Sequence record: NC_007021.1
Source of the DNA: Staphylococcus phage Twort
Reading direction: 5' to 3' (one strand)
DNA: 64,000 nt
The position numbers were made by a program, and so were the translations under genes. The notes beneath the pieces are model-generated. The model worked only from the letters and a program-made list of their open reading frames with translations. It did no database searches and had not been told where the DNA came from. Numbering within the stretch: the stretch's first letter is position 1; each line of letters opens with the position of its first letter. This document shows, piece by piece, positions 2,157 through 61,169 of the stretch.

Positions 2157-2948
2157 ATGTTACAAAATATTATAAAAAGTAAGGACACTGATATAAATAT
2201 CGGTGTCTTACACTTTTTAACAAATAGAACTTTTACGTATGAAGAAGTAGCAAAGAATAATAAACAATTAACAAAAGACTATAATTTTATTGTTAAGTCT
2301 TATGGATTCAATGACTTTTATGATATGTTTCTTTATATTAATAGAGACACTATTATTAAAGGAGGTAATAAGGACGAATCTAAGTTAAATAAAGTAAAAC
2401 GTAAAGTTATACGTAATGGTAAAGAAATAGAAATGACGGTTTATGAAGACCCTAACGCAGGTAACCAACAACAAGATAAAAAACCCAAAGATAATGAACA
2501 ACAACCTAAAACAACATCAGCTATAGGCTCTAAATCTACAGGAACGGAAGAAGGACAAAAGGTTAATCCTAAGAGACTATCAAATACAATTAGTAAGTTA
2601 GGTAGTAACATAGACCACATAGATACTTCTTTAGTTAATATCTCTAGGGAATTTACTTCTACAGATGGTGATTTAATAGGTAATGCCTTATTCGAGGAAA
2701 CGGAAGATACTATTAAACTACATGGATATATAACAAAAGAAGATGTTACTGGCGTAGGTGTACGTTCTATTATAGAATTACTTTTATTAGGTATAAAGAA
2801 AGAAAAGAATATAGAAGTATATGACATTCAATTACCTGAGGCTATACAATATTTGAAGATGTTAGGGTTTACTAAAAAGAAAGATTCTTTTTACATGAAG
2901 AAAAAAGATGTATTATCATTTATAGGGGATTTACATGAATTTCTTTAG
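2157..2948 (+). CDS. hypothetical protein
   Basis: 263-aa ORF with RBS; no recognisable motif. Confidence 0.5.
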   Translation: MLQNIIKSKDTDINIGVLHFLTNRTFTYEEVAKNNKQLTKDYNFIVKSYGFNDFYDMFLYINRDTIIKGGNKDESKLNKVKRKVIRNGKEIEMTVYEDPNAGNQQQDKKPKDNEQQPKTTSAIGSKSTGTEEGQKVNPKRLSNTISKLGSNIDHIDTSLVNISREFTSTDGDLIGNALFEETEDTIKLHGYITKEDVTGVGVRSIIELLLLGIKKEKNIEVYDIQLPEAIQYLKMLGFTKKKDSFYMKKKDVLSFIGDLHEFL

Positions 2949-3587: not shown

Positions 3588-4577
3588 GTGAAAGGGAAAA
3601 GTTTAATGAATAAAAAGTTAGACGTAAAAGAAGTAGCAACTGTAATTATCATAATACTAATAGGTTTTTCTATACTATTTAATCTTTTCTTTTTATCTCA
3701 ATTAGATAAAGAAAAAGAAGAGAAAGATAAATACAAAAGATTAGTTAATATTTACCAAAAAGACAATAAGATAGATACTAAAGACAAAAAAGAATATGTT
3801 AAAAGGTTAAATGATGCAGAAGAGGAACTTGATAAAGTAAAACGGGAAACTAATTATAAAGGTTACAACGATAAGTCTGATAAAGGCAAAGAGGAAATAG
3901 ATAAAGAACTTAAAGAGGCTATTTTCGGTAAACTTAGAGACGATGAGATAATTGTTAAAACTAAGATTGAATACACAGATAAGGTTAAATCACCTACTAT
4001 AGAAGTAGATAATGAGGGTGTAGGGAAAGTATTATTGCCTATAGAAACAAAACCTAAGAATGATAATACTGAAGTAAAAATAGTTGATTCTACTAACACA
4101 CCAACTACTACACCACCAGTAACAAGTGCACCAGAGGTCAATAATACACCAGTCCCCCAACAACCTCCTAGTGTATCAGATAATAACGGTAATACAGTGC
4201 CTACTGTACCTAGTGATGGTGGAAATTTAACACCAAATGTTCCAAGTAACCCAACACCACCTGTTGAAGAACCACCTATTGTGTTGCCTCCACCAGTAGA
4301 AGACCCTATAAAACCTACGGAGCCAGACAGACCTACAGAACCTTCTCAACCAGAAGAACCAAATAGTCCTGTAGAACCAGAAGACCCTAACAACCCTGAT
4401 AACCCAAACAACCCTGAGGAGCCTTCTCAACCAGAAGAACCAAGTAATCCTGATAACCCCGATGTTCCTGAAGAAACAAGTAATCCTAGTGAACCTAATA
4501 GTATACCGTGGGCACCACTAGAACCACCTTTGAGTATGCCTTTAGTTCCTCTAGAACCCGCAACACCAATAACATAA
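3588..4577 (+). CDS. membrane-anchored protein with coiled-coil and Pro/Thr/Glu-rich repetitive C-terminus
   Basis: N-terminal TM segment, Lys/Glu-rich middle, PEEPSQPEEPN-type repeats. Confidence 0.5.
   Translation: MKGKSLMNKKLDVKEVATVIIIILIGFSILFNLFFLSQLDKEKEEKDKYKRLVNIYQKDNKIDTKDKKEYVKRLNDAEEELDKVKRETNYKGYNDKSDKGKEEIDKELKEAIFGKLRDDEIIVKTKIEYTDKVKSPTIEVDNEGVGKVLLPIETKPKNDNTEVKIVDSTNTPTTTPPVTSAPEVNNTPVPQQPPSVSDNNGNTVPTVPSDGGNLTPNVPSNPTPPVEEPPIVLPPPVEDPIKPTEPDRPTEPSQPEEPNSPVEPEDPNNPDNPNNPEEPSQPEEPSNPDNPDVPEETSNPSEPNSIPWAPLEPPLSMPLVPLEPATPIT
4338..4450 (+). repeat. Direct coding repeat (~33 nt, two copies 80 nt apart) encoding EPSQPEEP(N/S)..P
   Basis: gaaccttctcaaccagaagaaccaaatagtcct at 4338-4370 versus gagccttctcaaccagaagaaccaagtaatcct at 4418-4450. 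Confidence 0.7.
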
Positions 4578-5027: not shown

Positions 5028-5408
5028 TTGACCTATGCTAAAGATAAAAAATGGGAAGATGCAAAGACTTTTATAAAACAACAGGGTATGAAAGATAATT
5101 GGATAGAAATAGTAGATTATTATAGGCAAATAGGTGGTACGCACGTTGCTGTATTTATTGCTCTAGAAAAAGAAAAGTATATGATACTAGAAGCAACTAC
5201 TGATAATAGGGTAATATTAGTAGATAAAAATAATAATATTGTTTTAGAAGATTATAATGTGGTTATGGAATCTAAGAAGATGTTTTATTATATAGAACAA
5301 CCCTTTAAACATAAAATAGACTTAAATAGTTCTATAAGTAGTATTACCTACAATAACACAGATACATTAACAATGTACAACCATAAGGATGGTGACACGG
5401 TTGGCTGA
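5028..5408 (+). CDS. hypothetical protein
   Basis: 126-aa ORF immediately upstream of the portal gene. Confidence 0.45.
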   Translation: MTYAKDKKWEDAKTFIKQQGMKDNWIEIVDYYRQIGGTHVAVFIALEKEKYMILEATTDNRVILVDKNNNIVLEDYNVVMESKKMFYYIEQPFKHKIDLNSSISSITYNNTDTLTMYNHKDGDTVG

Positions 5409-7119
5409 TATTTTTAAACGTCTAAGGTTAGGTAGAGATTATGAGGACATAATTGATACTGTACCTATAGATGATGGATTACAGGCAAATATTAGAAACA
5501 TAGAAGAAAAAAGTAAGGAACTTAACAAATCATTATATGGTAAACAACAAGCATATGCAGAACCATTTCTTGAAGTAATGGATACAAACCCTGAATTTAG
5601 AACAAAGAGAAGTTATATGAAAAATTCAGATAATTTACATGATGTTCTAAAACAGTTTGGGAATAACCCAATTTTAAATGCTATCATTTTAACAAGGTCA
5701 AATCAAGTAGCTATGTACTGTCAGCCCTCAAGATATAACGAAAGAGGATTAGGTTTTGAAGTACGCATGCGTGATTTAGATGCTGAACCTGGAAAAAAAG
5801 AAAAAGAAGAAATTAAACGTATAGAAAACTTTATTTTAAATACAGGAAGAGATAAAGATATAGATAGAGATTCTTTCCAGTCTTTTTGTCGTAAAATTGT
5901 ACGTGATACTTATACATACGACCAAGTAAACTTTGAAAAGGTATTTAATAAGAAAAATGCTACAACAATGGATAAGTTTATTGCCGTAGACCCTAGTACT
6001 ATTTTTTATGCTACTGATAAAAATGGTAAGATAATTAAGGGTGGAAAGCGTTTTGTTCAGGTTATAAATAAAAAGGTTGTAGCTAGCTTCACTTCTAGGG
6101 AAATGGCTATGGGTATTCGTAACCCAAGAACAGAATTATCTAGTAGTGGTTATGGATTATCCGAAGTAGAAATTGCTATGAAACAATTTATTGCCTATAA
6201 TAATACGGAAACATTTAATGATAGATTCTTTTCACATGGTGGAACAACACGAGGTATACTTCAGATTAAATCAGAACAACAGCAATCACAACGTGCATTA
6301 GAGAATTTTAAAAGAGAATGGAAGTCTAGTTTTTCTGGTATAAACGGAAGCTGGCAGGTGCCAGTTGTAATGGCTGATGATATTAAATTTGTTAATATGA
6401 CACCAACCGCAAATGATATGCAGTTTGAAAAGTGGTTAACCTATTTAATAAACATTATTTCAGCATTATATGGTATTGACCCTGCAGAGATTGGTTTCCC
6501 TAATAGAGGTGGAGCTACAGGAGGTAAGGGTGGTAATACTTTAAATGAAGCCGACCCTGGTAAGAAGCAACAACAGTCACAAAACAAAGGTCTACAACCA
6601 CTACTAAGATTTATTGAAGATTTAATAAACACACATATTATATCAGAATACAGTGACAAATACGTTTTCCAATTTGTAGGTGGAGATACTAAGTCAGAAT
6701 TAGATAAAATTAAAATCCTACAAGAAGAAGTTAAGACGTATAAGACCGTTAATGAGGCACGTAAAGAAAAAGGTCTTAAACCTATTGAGGGCGGGGACGT
6801 GTTATTAGATGGTTCATTTATTCAAAGTATGTCATTAAATACACAAAAAGAACAGTATGAAGATACAAAACAAAAAGAGCGTTTTGATATGATTCAACAA
6901 TTCTTAAATTCACCTGATGATGAAGAACCACAACAAGAGTCTACTGAAGATAAAGTTGATGGTAGGGAATCTAATGACCCAACAAAAATAGATAGTCCAG
7001 TAGGTACAGATGGTCAACTAAAAGACCAAGACAATGTTAAGAGTCAAGAAGGTTCTAACAAAGGTCAAGGTACGAAAGGTAAAGGTAACGAAAAACCTTC
7101 TGATTTTAAAAATAATTAA
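5389..7119 (+). CDS. portal protein
   Basis: 576-aa ORF in the portal position (after terL, before protease and MCP); acidic/Gly-rich C-terminus is typical. Confidence 0.75.
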   Translation: MVTRLADIFKRLRLGRDYEDIIDTVPIDDGLQANIRNIEEKSKELNKSLYGKQQAYAEPFLEVMDTNPEFRTKRSYMKNSDNLHDVLKQFGNNPILNAIILTRSNQVAMYCQPSRYNERGLGFEVRMRDLDAEPGKKEKEEIKRIENFILNTGRDKDIDRDSFQSFCRKIVRDTYTYDQVNFEKVFNKKNATTMDKFIAVDPSTIFYATDKNGKIIKGGKRFVQVINKKVVASFTSREMAMGIRNPRTELSSSGYGLSEVEIAMKQFIAYNNTETFNDRFFSHGGTTRGILQIKSEQQQSQRALENFKREWKSSFSGINGSWQVPVVMADDIKFVNMTPTANDMQFEKWLTYLINIISALYGIDPAEIGFPNRGGATGGKGGNTLNEADPGKKQQQSQNKGLQPLLRFIEDLINTHIISEYSDKYVFQFVGGDTKSELDKIKILQEEVKTYKTVNEARKEKGLKPIEGGDVLLDGSFIQSMSLNTQKEQYEDTKQKERFDMIQQFLNSPDDEEPQQESTEDKVDGRESNDPTKIDSPVGTDGQLKDQDNVKSQEGSNKGQGTKGKGNEKPSDFKNN

Positions 7120-16271: not shown

Positions 16272-17563
16272 ATGGCATCTCAAGCTAAACAGACAGTCCA
16301 TACTGGTAATACCGTAATGCTTATGATTAAAGGTAAACCTGTAGGTAGAGCTCAATCAGCGTCTGGTACACGTTCTTACGGTACAGAAGGGGTATATGAG
16401 ATTGGTTCTATCATGCCACAAGAACACGTTTACCTTAAGTATGAAGGTGAATTAACAGTAGAACGTCTACGAATGAAAAAAGAGAACTTTGCAAAATTAG
16501 GATATGCTTCTCTTGGTGAAGAAATCCTTAAGAAAGATATTATTGACATTGTTGTTATTGACAACTTGACTAAAGAAGTGCTTGTGTCATATCACGGTTG
16601 TAGTGCTAATAACTATGAACTTCGTAGCTTCACATAGTAATATGTGTCGAAAAACTTTTCTAAACAGGGAAGCCTAAGTCTATTAGATATGGTAATCCTG
16701 TGCTAAATCAGATTAATAATCTGTAAATGCCAAACGACTAACTGAAACCTACTTGATAATTCAAGGGGAGTAAGTGTAGAGCCAAGCGGTAGAAGTTTTA
16801 AGTAATTATTATGTAAATCTTCTTTAAATCGAAAAGAAAAGAGTCCTTTTTTAGGATTGTGATATAGTCTGAACATATATGGAAACATATAGCAGTTCCT
16901 AGAGAACGGGCAGTGAGTAGCGACCACTGTTGAACATAATGGATGAAGCATGGAACACTAATGAAATAACTACTGAAAGCATAAATAATTGTGCCTTTAT
17001 ACAGTAATGTATATCGAAAAATCCTCTAATTCAGGGAACACCTAAACAAACTAAGATGTAGGCAATCCTGAGCTAAGCTCTTAGTAATAAGAGAAAGTGC
17101 AACGACTATTCCGATAGGAAGTAGGGTCAAGTGACTCGAAATGGGGATTACCCTTCTAGGGTAGTGATATAGTCTGAACATATATGGAAACATATAGAAG
17201 GATAGGAGTAACGAACCTATTCGTAACATAATTGAACTTTTAGTTATTTATCAGCATAAAATTATCTTGTGCCTTTACACAGTAATGTGTATTGAAAACT
17301 CCTTTAATTCATGGGAAATCTTAATTAAGACAATCATGAGCCAAGCCTAGCAATAGGAAGGTGCAACGACTAGAGAAAGGGTAGCTTACTATTATAGGTA
17401 GTAAGTGAGAACCGAGTATCGTACGCTCAAGTGAGTGGAAATGGGGAGTGTCCTAGAGTAACGACTAGGATAATGATATAGTCTGAACATATATGGAAAC
17501 ATATAGAAGGATAGGAGTAACGAACCTATTCGTAACATAATTGCAGATAAAGCTTCACGATAG
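16272..17563 (+). CDS. tail tube protein gene split by three group I introns; ~139 aa when spliced
   Basis: Inferred exons: 16272-16607, 16942-16982 (41 nt), 17235-17257 (23 nt), 17544-17563. Exon 1 ORF (112 aa) follows the sheath gene. Splice sites are inferred from alignment of the intron copies, the U-before-5'SS and G-before-3'SS rules, and frame continuity (84 nt = 28 codons to TAG at 17561-17563). Confidence 0.55.
16608..16941 (+). mobile_element. Group I intron 1 of the tail-tube gene (ORF-less)
   Basis: P/Q/R/S-like core elements; 3' end ..GUUGAACAUAAUG. Confidence 0.55.
16983..17234 (+). mobile_element. Group I intron 2 of the tail-tube gene (ORF-less)
   Basis: Starts aaataattgtgcc..; R ..gcaacgacta..; 3' 75 nt identical to intron 3, ending ..cgtaacataattg. 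Confidence 0.55.
17258..17543 (+). mobile_element. Group I intron 3 of the tail-tube gene (ORF-less)
   Basis: Starts aaaattatcttgtgcc..; same conserved 3' core; ends ..cgtaacataattg. Confidence 0.55.
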
Positions 17564-41867: not shown

Positions 41868-42233
41868 ATGGGAAGACAAATTAATTTTGCAGTAGATGGT
41901 TATGTGTTACTTTTACTAGATAAAAATCTTATTACAGGATACGTAACTTATGGGCAAGCTGAACCAGGTATGCCACAAGTTATTGTGCATGAAGATTTAC
42001 TACCTAAAGACTTCTTTAAAGAATTTAAAGTAAATAAATACAAATATTACAGTTCACCTGAAGAAATTATTATTAATCCAGACTATAAAGACCCACAACA
42101 AGAAGAGCTCGAACAGGAAGAGAAACCCCAACAATCTACAACAGGTTCTAAATCAGTTGAGCAGTTAATGGATGAACTACAGAGTATTAAGGATATGCAA
42201 AACAAGATTTTAGAGTTACTTATGAGAAAGTAG
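41868..42233 (+). CDS. hypothetical protein (fibre chaperone candidate)
   Basis: 121-aa ORF. Confidence 0.35.
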   Translation: MGRQINFAVDGYVLLLLDKNLITGYVTYGQAEPGMPQVIVHEDLLPKDFFKEFKVNKYKYYSSPEEIIINPDYKDPQQEELEQEEKPQQSTTGSKSVEQLMDELQSIKDMQNKILELLMRK

Positions 42234-56070: not shown

Positions 56071-56463
56071 ATGACAAAAGAGGAAAGACCCATAATTGTA
56101 TACTACAGTGGTACAGGACAAACTAAAAGATTAGTAGATAAAATTAATAATGATTCATTTGAGGTAATGAGAATGAAAACAGGCAATGAGATAGTAGAGC
56201 AACCTTACATTCTTATTACCCCTACTTATATGAAAGGTGAAATTCCTAAACAAGTACAAAAATTTATTAGTAATAATCATGCACCTAAAGAAGTTATTGG
56301 CACAGGAAATAAACAGTGGGGAGAACACTTTTGCGGTGCAAGTAAAAAAATAGCTGAAATGTTTAGTATACCTCTTGTTGCTAAGATTGAACAAGCAGGT
56401 CATTTTAATGAAGTAAATACTATTAAAGAGTATTTTACAACAGAATACAAAGTTAGTTATTAG
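56071..56463 (+). CDS. nrdI: NrdI flavodoxin-like protein
   Basis: ..IVYYSGTGQTKRLV.. flavodoxin motif; immediately upstream of nrdE. Confidence 0.8.
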   Translation: MTKEERPIIVYYSGTGQTKRLVDKINNDSFEVMRMKTGNEIVEQPYILITPTYMKGEIPKQVQKFISNNHAPKEVIGTGNKQWGEHFCGASKKIAEMFSIPLVAKIEQAGHFNEVNTIKEYFTTEYKVSY

Positions 56464-56473
56464 AGGTGAAAAG

Positions 56474-57193
56474 ATGGCAACTTATGGTAAGTGGATTGAC
56501 CTTAATAATGAGGTCACTCAACTAGACGAAAATGGAAAAAATAAACTCTATAAGGACAAAGAAGCCTTAGAAGAGTACTCAAAATATATTGAAAAGAATA
56601 CACGTAATTTTGATAATGAAGTAGAGCGTGTACGTACCTTAACTAAAGAGGGTACTTATGATAAGGTGTTTGATAGTATTCCTGATACTATTATTGAAGA
56701 AATGACAAAGTTAGCTTATAGTTTTAACTTTCAATTTCAGAGCTTTATGGCATGTCAAAAGTTCTATGAATCATATGCTGTGACACAGTATGATAAAGAT
56801 GATAATCCTATTTTTGTAGAAGATTATGAACAACATAATGTACGTGTTGCGCTTTATTTATTTCAAGACGATTATGTTAAAGCTAGAGAAATGTTAATTC
56901 AATTAATGGAACAGACATTACAGCCCGCTACACCAGTATATCTTAACTCAGGGTTAGGTAAACGTGGTGAATTGTCATCTTGTTATTTATTTATTGTAGA
57001 TGATACTATCGAATCTATTAACTTTATTACAGACTCCGTACGACAAGCATCTAAAAATGCAGGAGGTTGTGCAGTAGACTTAACAAGATTACGCCCTAGA
57101 GGAACAGAGGTTAATGGTGTTCCTAATGCTAGTAAGGGTGTAATACCATTTGCAAAAAATATCGAGCAGAGCGTATCATATTTCAACCAGGGT
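56474..57193 (+). CDS. nrdE: Ribonucleotide reductase class Ib alpha subunit, exon 1
   Basis: Ends ..SYFNQG at a U; splicing to 57623 gives ..FNQGGKREGSAVCYL.. Confidence 0.75.
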
Positions 57194-57622
57194 AAACAAT
57201 TCTGCCCCCTATATTAGTAATAGTGTAGGTTAAAAAACTTCCTTAATTCATGGGAAATCTCCTTGACTTTTATTATAAATTTTGGTATAGTAAAATGAGA
57301 AGGAGATAATCATGAGCAAGATAACCAATAGCAAAGAAACCCAAAAAAGTACCTAACGCTACTAAAAGTATTTACCACCATATAAAAAGTAAAAGAAGAT
57401 GGAAGTCATTAAATCACTTAATGAATTGGTAATTATCTTGTGCAACGACTAGAGAAAAGATAGTTTATTGTTACAGGCAGTAAATGAAGACTGAGTATCG
57501 TACACTCAAGTGAGTGGAAACAGGAAGTATCCTAGAGTAACGACTAGGATAATGATATAGTCTGAACATTGTAGGTGACTACAAGAAGGTAAGGAGTAAC
57601 GAACCTTATCGTAACATAATTG
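57194..57622 (+). mobile_element. Group I intron 1 of nrdE (ORF-less)
   Basis: P ..aattcatgggaaatc..; R ..gcaacgactag..; S tgatatagtc; ends ..cgtaacataattg; 5' region matches tail-tube intron 3. Confidence 0.65.
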
Positions 57623-58648
57623 GGAAAACGTGAAGGCTCTGCAGTATGTTATTTAAATATATTCCACCCAGATATTCATGAATTTTTAAGTTCTAAAAAA
57701 ATTAATGCTAGTGATAAAGTAAGATTAGACACATTATCTATTGGTGTAACAATACCAAATAAGTTTATGGAATTACTTAAAGAAGATAAATACTACTATA
57801 CATTTAATGTATATGATGTTAAACAAAAATATGGGTTTACATTAAATGAAATAAACATGTCCGAGTATTATGATATATTTGTGAATGATGATGATATTAG
57901 AAAAGAAAAATATTATACAAGAGATATAATGACTGACATTGCAAGAACACAACTAGAGTCAGGATACCCTTATGTTTTCTACATTGATAACGCAAATGAC
58001 AATCACCCTTTGAAGAAACTAGGTAAAGTTCAAATGTCTAATTTATGCTGTGAGGTGACACAGCTACAAGAAGTATCCGACATATTCCCATATTTACAAT
58101 CACATAATGATACTATTGGGAATGATGTTGTGTGTACGTTAGGTTCATTAAATTTAGTGAATGTTGTAGAAAAAGGATTGCTTAAAGAATCCGTAGATAG
58201 TGGTATTCGTTCGTTATCTAAAGTAACGGATTTAATGAACGTTCCATTTTTACCAAGTGTTCAGAAGGCAAACGATGAGCTACGAGCTATAGGTCTTGGA
58301 GCAATGAACTGGCATGGACTTCTAGCAAAGAATATGCTTAGTTATGGTTCTAGGGAATCTCTAGACATTGCTAATAGTTTATTTAGTGCTATTAGATACT
58401 ACTCTATTAAGTCTAGTATGGAACTAGCTAAAGAAACTGGTAAAGTTTTTAAAGGTTTTAAAGAATCAGAATACTATACTGGAGAAGTGTTTAGTTCATA
58501 TATTCAAAAGTCACATGAACCTAGAACTAAAAAAGCTAAAAAAGTACTAGAAAAGGTATATATCCCTACGGAAGAAGACTGGAACTCTTTAAGCAAAGAT
58601 GTAAAAGAGTATGGTATGTACAACGGATACTTAAATAATCTTGCACCT
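57623..58648 (+). CDS. nrdE: Ribonucleotide reductase alpha subunit, exon 2
   Basis: GKREGSAVCYLNIFHPDIHEFL (active-site loop) ... ends ..NNLAP. Confidence 0.75.
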
Positions 58649-59735
58649 TATATATTAGGGCGTGTATAAGAATACATGATAACTCTTTCGAATTGCTGGA
58701 ACACCCTTAGAGCCTAATAAACTACAACGTAACTAGAAATGGTAAGCGTGAATGTTTAAAAATTATTGGGATTGGGCAATCAGCATCTAAGATTCTAAAT
58801 AATTATAATTAAAATAAAGTGTAACAAAGGAAGATATATTATAGAGGAGTTATGGAAAGAAATACCTGGGTTTAATTCATACATGATTAGTAATAAAGGT
58901 CAGGTTTACTCAAGAAAAAGAAATAAGATACTAGCTTTACGAACAGATAAAAATGGGTATAAAAGAATATCTATTTTTAACAATGAAGGTAAAAGAATTC
59001 TATTAGGAGTTCATAAGTTAGTTCTCTTAGGTTTTAAAGGTATTAATACTGAAAAGCCTATACCTCACCATAAGAATAATATTAAAGATGATAACAGATT
59101 AGAAAATTTGGAATGGGTTACAGTTAGTGAAAATACCAAGCATGCATATGATATAGGGGCTTTAAAATCACCTAGGAGAGTTACATGTACTCTTTATTAT
59201 AAAGGAGAACCTTTATCATGCTATGACTCGTTGTTTGACTTAGCTAAGGCTTTAAAAGTAAGTAGAAGTGTAATAGAGAGTCCTAGAAATGGTTTGGTGT
59301 TATCTACTTTTGAAGTAAAAAGAGAACCTACAATACAAGGACTACCTTTAAATAAAGAGATATTTGAGCATAGTTTAATTAAGGGCTTGGGTAATCCTCC
59401 TTTAAAAGTGTATAATGAAGATGAAACCTACTACTTTTTAACTTTAATGGACATAAGTAAGTACTTTAATGAATCATACTCTAAAGTACAACGAGGATAT
59501 TATAAAGGTAAGTGGAAAAGTTATATTATAGAACATATTGATTTTTATGAGTATTACAAACAAACACATTAATTATAATTACAAGAATAAAGTTCAACGA
59601 CTATCCCGTTGCTGGGAGTACACTCAAGTGAGTGGAAGTGGAAGAGGTCTTACTTAAGTAAGATGTGATATAGTCTGGACGTATATGGAAACATATAGAA
59701 GGTAAGGAGTAACGAACCTTATCGTAACATAATCG
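58649..59735 (+). mobile_element. Group I intron 2 of nrdE, carrying an HNH endonuclease ORF
   Basis: R ..caacgactatc.. at 59594; S gtgatatagtc at 59660; ends ..cgtaacataatcg; exon junction restores LAP|TQSISY. Confidence 0.65.
58838..59572 (+). CDS. Intron-encoded HNH homing endonuclease (I-HmuI-like); start uncertain (ATT/ATA ~58838-58841, or ATG 58883)
   Basis: N-terminus ..LWKEIPGFNSYMISNKGQVYS.. matches the conserved EWKDIKGYEGHYQVSNTGEVYS start of I-HmuI-type enzymes. HNH motif ..PHHKNNIKDDNRLENLEWVTVSENTKH.. . RBS AAAGGAAG at 58827-58834. Confidence 0.65.
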   Translation: MIEELWKEIPGFNSYMISNKGQVYSRKRNKILALRTDKNGYKRISIFNNEGKRILLGVHKLVLLGFKGINTEKPIPHHKNNIKDDNRLENLEWVTVSENTKHAYDIGALKSPRRVTCTLYYKGEPLSCYDSLFDLAKALKVSRSVIESPRNGLVLSTFEVKREPTIQGLPLNKEIFEHSLIKGLGNPPLKVYNEDETYYFLTLMDISKYFNESYSKVQRGYYKGKWKSYIIEHIDFYEYYKQTH

Positions 59736-60104
59736 ACACAATCCATTTCGTATGTACAAAATGCAACTTCTAGTATTATGCCAGTACCTTCACCTATTGA
59801 AAATAGACGCTATGGTAACATGGACACATACTATCCTATGCCGTTTATGTCACCAATTACACAATTTTTCTACGAGAGTGAAACAGCATATAAATTAGAT
59901 AATAAACGTATTATTAATACAAGTGCGGTGATTCAAAAACACGTAGACCAAGCTATTTCTACTATTCTTTACGTAGAGTCTGAAATACCAACTAATAAAT
60001 TAGTAAGTTTATATTATTATGCTTGGGAAAAAGGTTTAAAATCTTTATACTATACCCGTTCACAAACATTAAAAGTTATTGAGTGTGAATCTTGTAGTGT
60101 ATAA
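59736..60104 (+). CDS. nrdE: Ribonucleotide reductase alpha subunit, exon 3
   Basis: TQSISYVQNATSSIMPV.. and ..SLYYTRS.. (radical-transfer Tyr pair); C-terminal CESC. Confidence 0.75.
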   Translation, partial: TQSISYVQNATSSIMPVPSPIENRRYGNMDTYYPMPFMSPITQFFYESETAYKLDNKRIINTSAVIQKHVDQAISTILYVESEIPTNKLVSLYYYAWEKGLKSLYYTRSQTLKVIECESCSV

Positions 60105-60119
60105 GAAAGGAAATCAGTA

Positions 60120-61169
60120 ATGGAACTTAAGAGACAAGTAGATAAATACTATAAAGATAAAATTAAAAACTTAGAAGCTGTTAACTGGAACGAGGAAGAT
60201 GAAATGGCTAATAACTTTTGGGAGTTAGCCACAACTTCCTTCTGGTTACCAGAAGACTTTGATATTTCACGAGATGTAAGCTCATGGAATAAATTAACAG
60301 ATATTGAAAAAGATACTTATAAAAAAGTTTTAGCAGGTTTAACAGGGTTAGATACTAAGCAAAGTGTTGAAGGAATGTCATTAATTGCACATCATGAACC
60401 TAGAACAAGATTTGCTCAAGTATACACAGCCTTTGATTTTTATGAATCAATCCATGCTAAGTCCTATAGTCATATTTTTACTACTTTATTATTAAATAAA
60501 GAAACAAATTACTTATTAAATGAGTGGGTAGAACAAGAACCACACCTAAAGAAAAAAGCACAGTATATTGGATATTTTTATGAAAAATTAGAACAGCCTA
60601 ATCCTAGTACATTTGATAGATATATGGCTAAAGTAGCCAGTGCTTTTTTAGAAAGCGCATTATTCTATTCAGGGTTCTATTATCCTCTACTACTATCAGG
60701 TCAAGGGGTTATGGTTCAATCAGGAACTACTATCTACAAGATTACACAAGATGAGGCATATCATGGTGTAGGAGTAGGTTATACCGCACAGTTAGATTAC
60801 CAAGAACTTACAGAAGAAGAGCAGTCTAAAGCTGATGCTCTTATGTACGAATTATTAGAAGTACTATATGAAAATGAAGTATCTTACTCACATATGTTAT
60901 ATGATAAGTTAGGATTAACGGAAGATGTTATTAGATATGTTCAATATAACTTCAATAGAGCTTTAGCTAACTTAGGGTTTGATGATTACTTTAATCCAGA
61001 ACCTTTTAATCCTATTGTAAATAACCAAACTAATGTAGATAAACTTAGTAATGCAGATTTCTTTAGTACAAAAAATGATTATAAACGCTCTATGAATACT
61101 AAAGACCTTAAAGATGAAGATTTTAAGTTTGATGATAAAGAATCTACTTTAGTAGATGAATTTTTATAA
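60120..61169 (+). CDS. nrdF: Ribonucleotide reductase beta subunit
   Basis: Ferritin-like di-iron motifs ..ESIHAKSYSHIF.., ..DEAYHGV.. Confidence 0.85.
   Translation: MELKRQVDKYYKDKIKNLEAVNWNEEDEMANNFWELATTSFWLPEDFDISRDVSSWNKLTDIEKDTYKKVLAGLTGLDTKQSVEGMSLIAHHEPRTRFAQVYTAFDFYESIHAKSYSHIFTTLLLNKETNYLLNEWVEQEPHLKKKAQYIGYFYEKLEQPNPSTFDRYMAKVASAFLESALFYSGFYYPLLLSGQGVMVQSGTTIYKITQDEAYHGVGVGYTAQLDYQELTEEEQSKADALMYELLEVLYENEVSYSHMLYDKLGLTEDVIRYVQYNFNRALANLGFDDYFNPEPFNPIVNNQTNVDKLSNADFFSTKNDYKRSMNTKDLKDEDFKFDDKESTLVDEFL

Follow-up and report, generated by a model that had tools for sequence, protein, structure and literature searches.

A conserved AUA codon as the probable translation start of I-TwoI, the nrdE-intron homing endonuclease of Staphylococcus phage Twort

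The structural prototype of the NUMOD4-HNH nicking endonucleases is I-HmuI of Bacillus phage SPO1, which has an N-terminal NUMOD4 module followed by an HNH motif and begins with a normal Met two residues before a conserved Trp (MEW). Staphylococcus phage Twort encodes an enzyme with the same N-terminal layout, I-TwoI, in the second group I intron of nrdE, but here it is an ATA codon, four codons before the equivalent Trp, that stands where translation would be expected to begin. The C-terminal DNA-binding parts of the two proteins are not alignable. Each is encoded in a group I intron of a phage that infects a Gram-positive host, and each nicks a single strand; I-TwoI is reportedly an active, site-specific nickase of the intron-less allele that cuts the coding strand in exon 1, and I-HmuI is said to cut the template strand in exon 2. 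We examined the start of I-TwoI in a 64,000-nucleotide (nt) stretch of Twort DNA (NC_007021.1), referred to throughout as the window, in which its open reading frame (ORF) occupies positions 58841–59572 of the plus strand (243 codons plus the stop TAA at 59570–59572). Taken together, the sequence features described below make AUA 58841 the probable initiation codon of I-TwoI.

Intron ORFs can be down-regulated by non-AUG codons and weak ribosome-binding sites (RBSs) (reviewed in Edgell et al. 2011, PMC3073962, with reference to Bonocora & Shub 2001 and Bechhofer et al. 1994), and in the case of I-TevI, ribosome occupancy of the intron impairs its splicing (PMC3073962). I-TevI and I-TwoI appear to face a common problem, an ORF carried in a P6 loop at the periphery of a group I intron that interrupts an essential phage gene, where translation must stay low if the intron is to fold and splice. 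On the host side, start mapping in Staphylococcus aureus has revealed AUA initiation for infC, ccpN, and citZ and AUU initiation for cvfC1 (Kohl et al. 2026, PMC13009471). Reporter constructs in S. aureus place AUA and AUU starts at ∼10% of AUG, with ccpN reaching up to 30% in rich medium (PMC13009471), while AUA initiation in Escherichia coli reaches roughly 0.02–3% of the AUG level in different constructs (bioRxiv 10.1101/063800). S. aureus also prefers Shine-Dalgarno spacers 2–3 nt longer than those of E. coli (PMC13009471). The four S. aureus genes resemble I-TwoI in that they are read by the same host ribosome, have a near-cognate codon that is conserved among relatives and presumed to attenuate expression, and carry a Shine-Dalgarno sequence at S. 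aureus-type spacing. They differ in being backed by profiling and reporter evidence and in having an extended Shine-Dalgarno sequence, whereas I-TwoI has a general Shine-Dalgarno sequence only and its start is read from the DNA.

The start region of the I-TwoI frame

The I-TwoI frame opens after an in-frame TAA stop at 58796–58798. The codons that follow are ATA ATT ATA ATT AAA ATA AAG TGT AAC AAA GGA AGA TAT ATT (58838), and the frame continues as ATA (58841) GAG GAG TTA TGG (58853) AAA GAA ATA CCT GGG TTT AAT TCA TAC ATG (58883). Direct reading thus bears out an earlier note on this DNA, made from its letters alone, on the lack of a canonical start: no in-frame ATG, GTG, or TTG occurs between the stop and the ATG at 58883–58885, and the conserved NUMOD4 Trp lies exactly 10 codons 5′ of this ATG. 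The note's placement of the RBS at 58827–58834 was off by one base, as AAAGGAAG is found at 58826–58833. By our own base-composition estimate, a canonical start would be absent from 18 random AT-rich codons with p ∼0.4, and the absence alone is unremarkable; it becomes meaningful because a conserved, selected domain begins inside the start-less stretch.

This domain is the NUMOD4 DNA-binding module (58847–58975; Pfam PF07463, E = 4.2e-13), which spans residues 3–45 of the ATA-started protein and profile positions 1–48 of 49, with profile position 1 falling on residue 3. It is followed by the HNH catalytic motif (59009–59137; Pfam PF13392 HNH_3, E = 7.9e-9, residues 57–99). Residues 5–110 of I-TwoI align with residues 3–108 of the I-HmuI chain in Protein Data Bank entry 1U3E (E = 3.9e-14), and Trp5 of I-TwoI corresponds to Trp3 of I-HmuI, which supports the note's pairing of WKEIPGF with MEWKDIKGY, the N-terminus of I-HmuI. 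PMC3428280 cites I-TwoI as a coding-strand nicker. Among distant NUMOD4-HNH relatives, an ATG lies 1–6 codons before the Trp in 10 of the 13 distinct Trp-bearing contexts, typically as ATG GAA NNN TGG, and the HNH gene in the Romulus nrdE region reads AAGAGGTGATAATAA-ATG-TGG. As judged from these contexts, the I-TwoI clade has ATA where the family usually has ATG, one G-to-A transition away.

The ATA start is already public. The I-TwoI coding sequence in GenBank record AF485080 (2505..3236, protein accession AAM00817) corresponds to 58841..59572 of the window at an offset of 56336 and has ATA as its first codon, and the ribosome-binding site annotated there (2492..2495) corresponds to the AGGA at 58828–58831, within AAAGGAAG. 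The 243-residue product, MEELWKEIPGF..., is 100% identical to AAX92347.1, YP_238598.1, and QIW89140.1. A non-canonical start has therefore been on record in GenBank since 2002 and is itself not new; what we add is support for the annotated ATA from a comparison of orthologues, an analysis of selection, and statistics of Shine-Dalgarno spacing.

For 56 long ORFs on the plus strand of the window, we determined how strong the Shine-Dalgarno sequence is and at what aligned spacing it lies; 34 of them have a good one. The spacing in these 34 genes is mainly 6–9 nt with a mode of 7 (one gene at 4 nt, one at 5, seven at 6, eleven at 7, five at 8, eight at 9, and one at 11). The ATA at 58841–58843 follows AAAGGAAG at the modal spacing of 7 nt, and the arrangement AAAGGAAGAT-N6-ATG recurs at the Twort genes at 41868, 48159, 55035, and 3097. 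Apart from having ATA in place of ATG, I-TwoI has the start region of an ordinary Twort gene.

Two other in-frame codons can be compared with ATA 58841 on the same scale. The ATT at 58838–58840, one codon upstream, is downstream of the Shine-Dalgarno sequence and would give a 244-residue protein; AUU is a documented bacterial start, used by infC and pcnB in E. coli as well as by cvfC1 in S. aureus. Its spacing is 4 nt, however, a value found in 1 of the 34 genes and at odds with the longer spacers favored in S. aureus, and the public annotation starts at ATA and not at this codon. The ATG at 58883–58885 (Met15) is the sole canonical in-frame start and is the one reported by a mechanical ORF finder, which would make the functional enzyme a truncated product of 229 residues. 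It has no Shine-Dalgarno sequence: the best duplex reaches −3.6 kcal/mol, compared to a window mean of −9.8±3.1 kcal/mol, at an aligned spacing of 12. Moreover, a protein begun at Met15 loses NUMOD4 profile positions 1–12 of 49, including the invariant Trp.

Conservation and selection across four lineages

Three orthologue lineages of I-TwoI (L044, L045, and L046–48), all metagenomic and Twort-like, were found, only in a large protein database. The matches were P0003 (65% identity, on a 140-kb Twort-like contig), P0002 (65% identity), and P0004 (55% identity, on three contigs). The orthologues share 54–66% amino acid identity with I-TwoI, and each lies between two nrdE exons, as in Twort. No close relative was found elsewhere, with identities of at most 45% in IMG/VR and at most 39% in a scan of JGI metagenomes, no match in GTDB genomes, and nothing above 40% among INPHARED phages except AF485080. 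Automatic gene callers had mis-started all three orthologues, choosing an internal TTG in L044 (giving 190 amino acids) and an upstream GTG in L045 and L046.

The start regions of the four lineages were read directly and aligned. The Twort region reads AAAGGAAG-atatatt followed by ATA GAG GAG TTA TGG; L044 has AAAGGAAG-attaaa followed by ATA GAA GAA AAA TGG, L045 has AAAGGAAG-attatt followed by ATA AAA GAA AAA TGG, and L046 has AAAGGTGAT-tcaa followed by ATA GAA GAA TTA TGG. The ATA is invariant, four codons before the Trp in every lineage, and the Shine-Dalgarno sequence of the orthologues lies 6–8 nt upstream of it. In L044, stop codons stand five and six codons upstream of the ATA, and the remaining options are an ATT that abuts the Shine-Dalgarno sequence or the ATA itself, while in L045 and L046 the upstream GTG and TTG codons either fall within the Shine-Dalgarno sequence or precede it. 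The ATT shifts its position from lineage to lineage, whereas the ATA is fixed relative to the Trp, and together with the short spacing in Twort this makes initiation at ATT 58838 unlikely. The earlier note had left the choice between ATT and ATA 3′ of AAAGGAAG; its proposal of non-canonical initiation is supported, and annotation, modal spacing, and the purifying selection described next narrow it to ATA 58841.

Counted from the ATA, the ORFs comprise 243, 243, 243, and 246 codons. Pairwise Nei-Gojobori estimates of the ratio of nonsynonymous to synonymous substitution rates (dN/dS) range from 0.11 to 0.26 at synonymous divergences (dS) of 0.8–1.7, and within the first 50 codons the proportion of nonsynonymous differences (pN, 0.07–0.28) is well below that of synonymous differences (pS, 0.40–0.74). 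Therefore, translation and selection have acted on these genes, their N-terminal module included, over the whole course of a divergence in which silent sites have become nearly saturated. The block PIPHH..NN..DNRLENL.WVT does not vary among the four proteins. Selection of this kind argues strongly against both a silencing of the gene by loss of its ATG and a truncated functional product. For the latter, the orthologues offer no counterpart to Met15, which is Lys (AAG or AAA) in all three; the first downstream canonical in-frame start, codon 15 in Twort, is codon 54, 91, or 62 in the orthologues, inside or beyond the HNH region. Given these replacements and the constraint on the N-terminal codons, we consider it very unlikely that the functional enzyme begins at ATG 58883.

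Homing endonuclease genes commonly degenerate after their intron has become fixed, and the loss of a start codon, leaving the gene translationally silent, could be a first step of such decay. Distant relatives normally have an ATG at this place, and a second Twort gene, in the terminase intron, shows an apparent recent ATG-to-ACG change (see below). The ATA of I-TwoI, however, is common to four lineages that have diverged to the dS values given above with intact ORFs under purifying selection, and the Shine-Dalgarno sequence and its spacing are retained, a selected state that an untranslated ORF would not keep intact. I-TwoI is, in addition, reportedly active as a nickase. A silent I-TwoI gene is thus quite unlikely.

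An out-of-frame ATG at 58852, which overlaps the Trp codon (A-TGG) and opens a mini-ORF (ATGGAAAGAAATACCTGGGTTTAA, 58852–58875), offers a further route, by initiation at this ATG and a +1 shift into the I-TwoI frame. The A before TGG, and hence the ATG, is found in all four lineages, and in Twort an AGGAG lies just upstream. The ATG is, however, only 1 nt from this AGGAG, a distance used by 0 window genes, and 18 nt (counted by hand) from AAAGGAAG; the AGGAG is absent in the other lineages, and the out-of-frame peptides are unrelated among lineages and only 2–10 codons long. No mechanism is known to us by which the initiator transfer RNA (tRNA) could shift by +1 from AUG onto UGG. TTA and AAA are believed to be the preferred Leu and Lys codons of AT-rich phages, and we judge the ATG to be an incidental by-product of A-ending Leu and Lys codons, its A being the third base of TTA or AAA. 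Initiation at 58852 is accordingly extremely improbable.

Several observations weigh against AUA 58841 as the start. The identity of the ATA codon taken by itself is only mildly unusual (p about 0.15–0.35), since one and the same codon is kept across the four lineages in 35% of invariant degenerate columns, including two of the six other invariant Ile columns. The comparison comprises only four lineages, of which L044 and L045 are close (84% identity). At −6.7 kcal/mol, the Shine-Dalgarno duplex of I-TwoI falls short of the mean strength in the window (−9.8±3.1 kcal/mol), and the extended motif as defined in PMC13009471 (AGGNAT, AGGNGT, GGGNAT, or GGGNGT) was seen by eye in 0 of the 4 I-TwoI-type 20-nt upstream regions; this extension is a trait of the four S. 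aureus examples and not a definition of the class. Furthermore, we found no ribosome profiling or N-terminal data for AUA initiation in Twort-infected cells. The case for the ATA is carried by the combined features and not by the codon-conservation number alone.

Intron 2, its loop-closing stem, and other features of the window

Positions 58600–59800 of the window match GenBank AF485080.1 over their full length, and by this match the ORF is that of I-TwoI, the NUMOD4-HNH nicking enzyme of the second nrdE group I intron of Twort, which was described by Landthaler, Begley, Lau & Shub in 2002 (Nucleic Acids Res 30:1935). In the AF485080 annotation, nrdE is a three-piece join. Intron 2 spans 58649–59735 (1,087 nt, reportedly the published length), with boundaries placed by hand so that the NrdE frame reads LAP across the junction into TQSISYV: exon 2 ends in GCA CCT at 58648, the last base of the intron is G 59735, and exon 3 begins ACA CAA TCC. 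Excising 58649–59735 rejoins the NrdE frame as LAP followed by TQSISYVQNATSS. A pairwise alignment over 58640–59776, which covers the whole of intron 2, shows 1137 of 1137 aligned bases to be identical to AF485080.

Over the larger interval of 56340–60162, the window and AF485080 (2002) differ by 8 mismatches and 5 small indels, none of them within intron 2; exon 1 has an indel of 3 nt, intron 1 and exon 3 have single-base indels that come in pairs, and the differences are probably corrections between sequencing efforts. Because the two records differ elsewhere in nrdE while agreeing on the I-TwoI start region, they represent independent determinations. We considered and rejected a sequencing error that creates a false frameshift at ATGG, as these two independent Twort sequences agree and the three orthologues are arranged alike. 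A fusion of I-TwoI to the upstream exon was likewise rejected, as the nrdE frame stops at TAA 58667–58669 and the I-TwoI frame has a stop at 58796.

The Twort nrdE intron is reportedly self-splicing. The Rfam family Intron_gpI did not match the nrdE introns, either in a gathering-threshold scan of the whole window or in a scan of 57000–60000 at E ≤ 1. By-eye comparison shows that the 3′ part of intron 2 resembles the core of the orf142 introns, with CAACGACTA, GATATAGTCTG, and ATATGGAAACATATAG in this order, and the nrdE introns have core blocks in common with the orf142 introns despite the silence of Rfam. The Rfam model does match the three orf142 introns themselves, at 16606–16892, 16973–17197, and 17248–17506.

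The loop that carries the I-TwoI ORF is closed by a perfect 13-bp inverted repeat, which we read as an extension of P6/P6a. Its 5′ arm (58800–58812) pairs with a 3′ arm (59569–59581) that contains the ORF stop codon, with pairing probabilities of 0.65–0.99 per position in a whole-intron partition function, and the core sequence CAACGACTA begins ∼20 nt past the ORF stop and 3′ arm. The stem is kept through compensatory changes in the three orthologues (about 3801–3813 / 4571–4583 in L044), the version in L046 being longer at 19 bp, and it includes the TAA stop of the ORF in all four lineages. With the stop codon inside the stem, terminating ribosomes must therefore open it.

The initiation region, by contrast with the RBS of I-TevI, which is sequestered in a hairpin, is exposed. 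Its local fold is no better than that of shuffled sequence (z = +1.15), the Shine-Dalgarno sequence is unpaired with a probability of 0.89, and 58826–58860 ranks at the 97th percentile of accessibility in the whole-intron ensemble, which makes this the most accessible part of the intron. An RBS hidden by RNA structure, as in I-TevI, was rejected on these values. Any attenuation of I-TwoI would therefore come from the start codon itself and not from RNA structure.

No sigma-70-like promoter was apparent upstream of the I-TwoI ORF in a consensus scan of 58500–59900, which gave 3 sites, none of them suitably placed, compared to 7.7 expected from shuffles; nor was there, in the same scan, any sign of an intron-internal promoter of the type annotated upstream of the Romulus HNH gene. 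A perfect TATAAT at 58804–58809 lacks a −35 partner and belongs to the loop-closing stem. Endonuclease occupancy of the nrdE introns differs among related phages: a gene for a GIY-YIG (SegE / I-TevI-like) endonuclease lies between the first two nrdE segments in L044 (2192–2773) and L045 (1295–1876), and the first nrdE intron of Twort (about 57218–57619) has no ORF at this place.

The earlier note had also described the endonuclease of the terminase intron as lacking a canonical start, and this holds: where its orthologues have ATG or TTG, the Twort gene has ACG at 203. The ORF spans 164–1165 and is open from 164; ATG, GTG, and TTG are all absent ahead of codon 201, the first canonical start being at 764. 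The ACG (203–205) comes 8 nt after a strong Shine-Dalgarno sequence (AAGGAGG, 188–194), and the codon at this position is ATG in DH2 (97% identical), ATG in SPJ2, and TTG in BE08. The protein consists of three Cys-rich repeats and a C-terminal part, the close relatives of which are annotated as homing endonuclease or group I intron-associated VSR homing endonuclease. Judging by the orthologues, the ACG looks like a recent, Twort-specific T-to-C change, which would make it either a near-cognate start or the mark of a newly weakened gene. The two intron genes thus contrast, in that the terminase-intron ACG is specific to Twort and the ATA of I-TwoI is common to its whole known lineage. Elsewhere in the window, the ORFs at 5028–5408 and 5389–7119 adjoin and overlap and both match portal-protein families (phrog_1108 for the former; phrog_15361 and phrog_12 for the latter), and a portal gene may be split or mis-framed at 5028–7119.

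The AUA codon as a possible attenuator

The sequence anatomy, the homology to I-HmuI, the conservation of ATA and Shine-Dalgarno sequence, the purifying selection, and the accessibility of the start region are observations; from them we infer initiation at AUA in the cell and a rationale for attenuation, as follows. The exposed, ordinary Shine-Dalgarno sequence AAAGGAAG, 7 nt upstream, would direct the ribosome to AUA 58841, yielding a product of 243 amino acids that would begin (f)Met-Glu-Glu-Leu-Trp. As AUA is read poorly by the initiator tRNA and discriminated against by initiation factor 3 (IF3), the codon probably acts as a built-in attenuator, holding output to roughly a tenth of that from AUG if the reporter values from S. 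aureus apply. Low output would limit the toxicity of the nuclease and would also limit the ribosome traffic that melts the loop-closing stem beside the catalytic core of an intron that must be spliced out for ribonucleotide reductase to be made. Since the stop codon lies inside this stem, next to the core, heavy translation would disturb the folding and splicing of the nrdE pre-mRNA.

A stronger proposal is that the AUA, far from being an oddity of annotation, is a selected, ancient attenuator of the I-TwoI lineage, through which the level of endonuclease depends on IF3 activity and on the physiological state of the infected S. aureus cell; the rise of the ccpN AUA start from ∼10% to ∼30% of AUG in rich medium offers a comparison. 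We hold this tentatively, as a possibility that falls short of even odds. If it is true, the codon would allow homing while keeping ribosomes from disturbing the P6 stem and the splicing of nrdE, and a change of ATA to ATG would measurably impair nrdE splicing or phage fitness.

For annotation, the practical consequence is that gene callers truncate or mis-start genes of the I-TwoI type (229 amino acids in Twort, 190 in L044, and an upstream GTG in L045 and L046) and that the 243-residue, ATA-started form should be kept. No new kind of system is revealed. I-TwoI would instead provide a clean example, conserved among phages, of S. aureus ribosomes initiating at AUA, which has only recently been mapped for host genes, and a tractable case of a mobile intron that limits the expression of its own endonuclease so that the splicing of an essential gene is unharmed.

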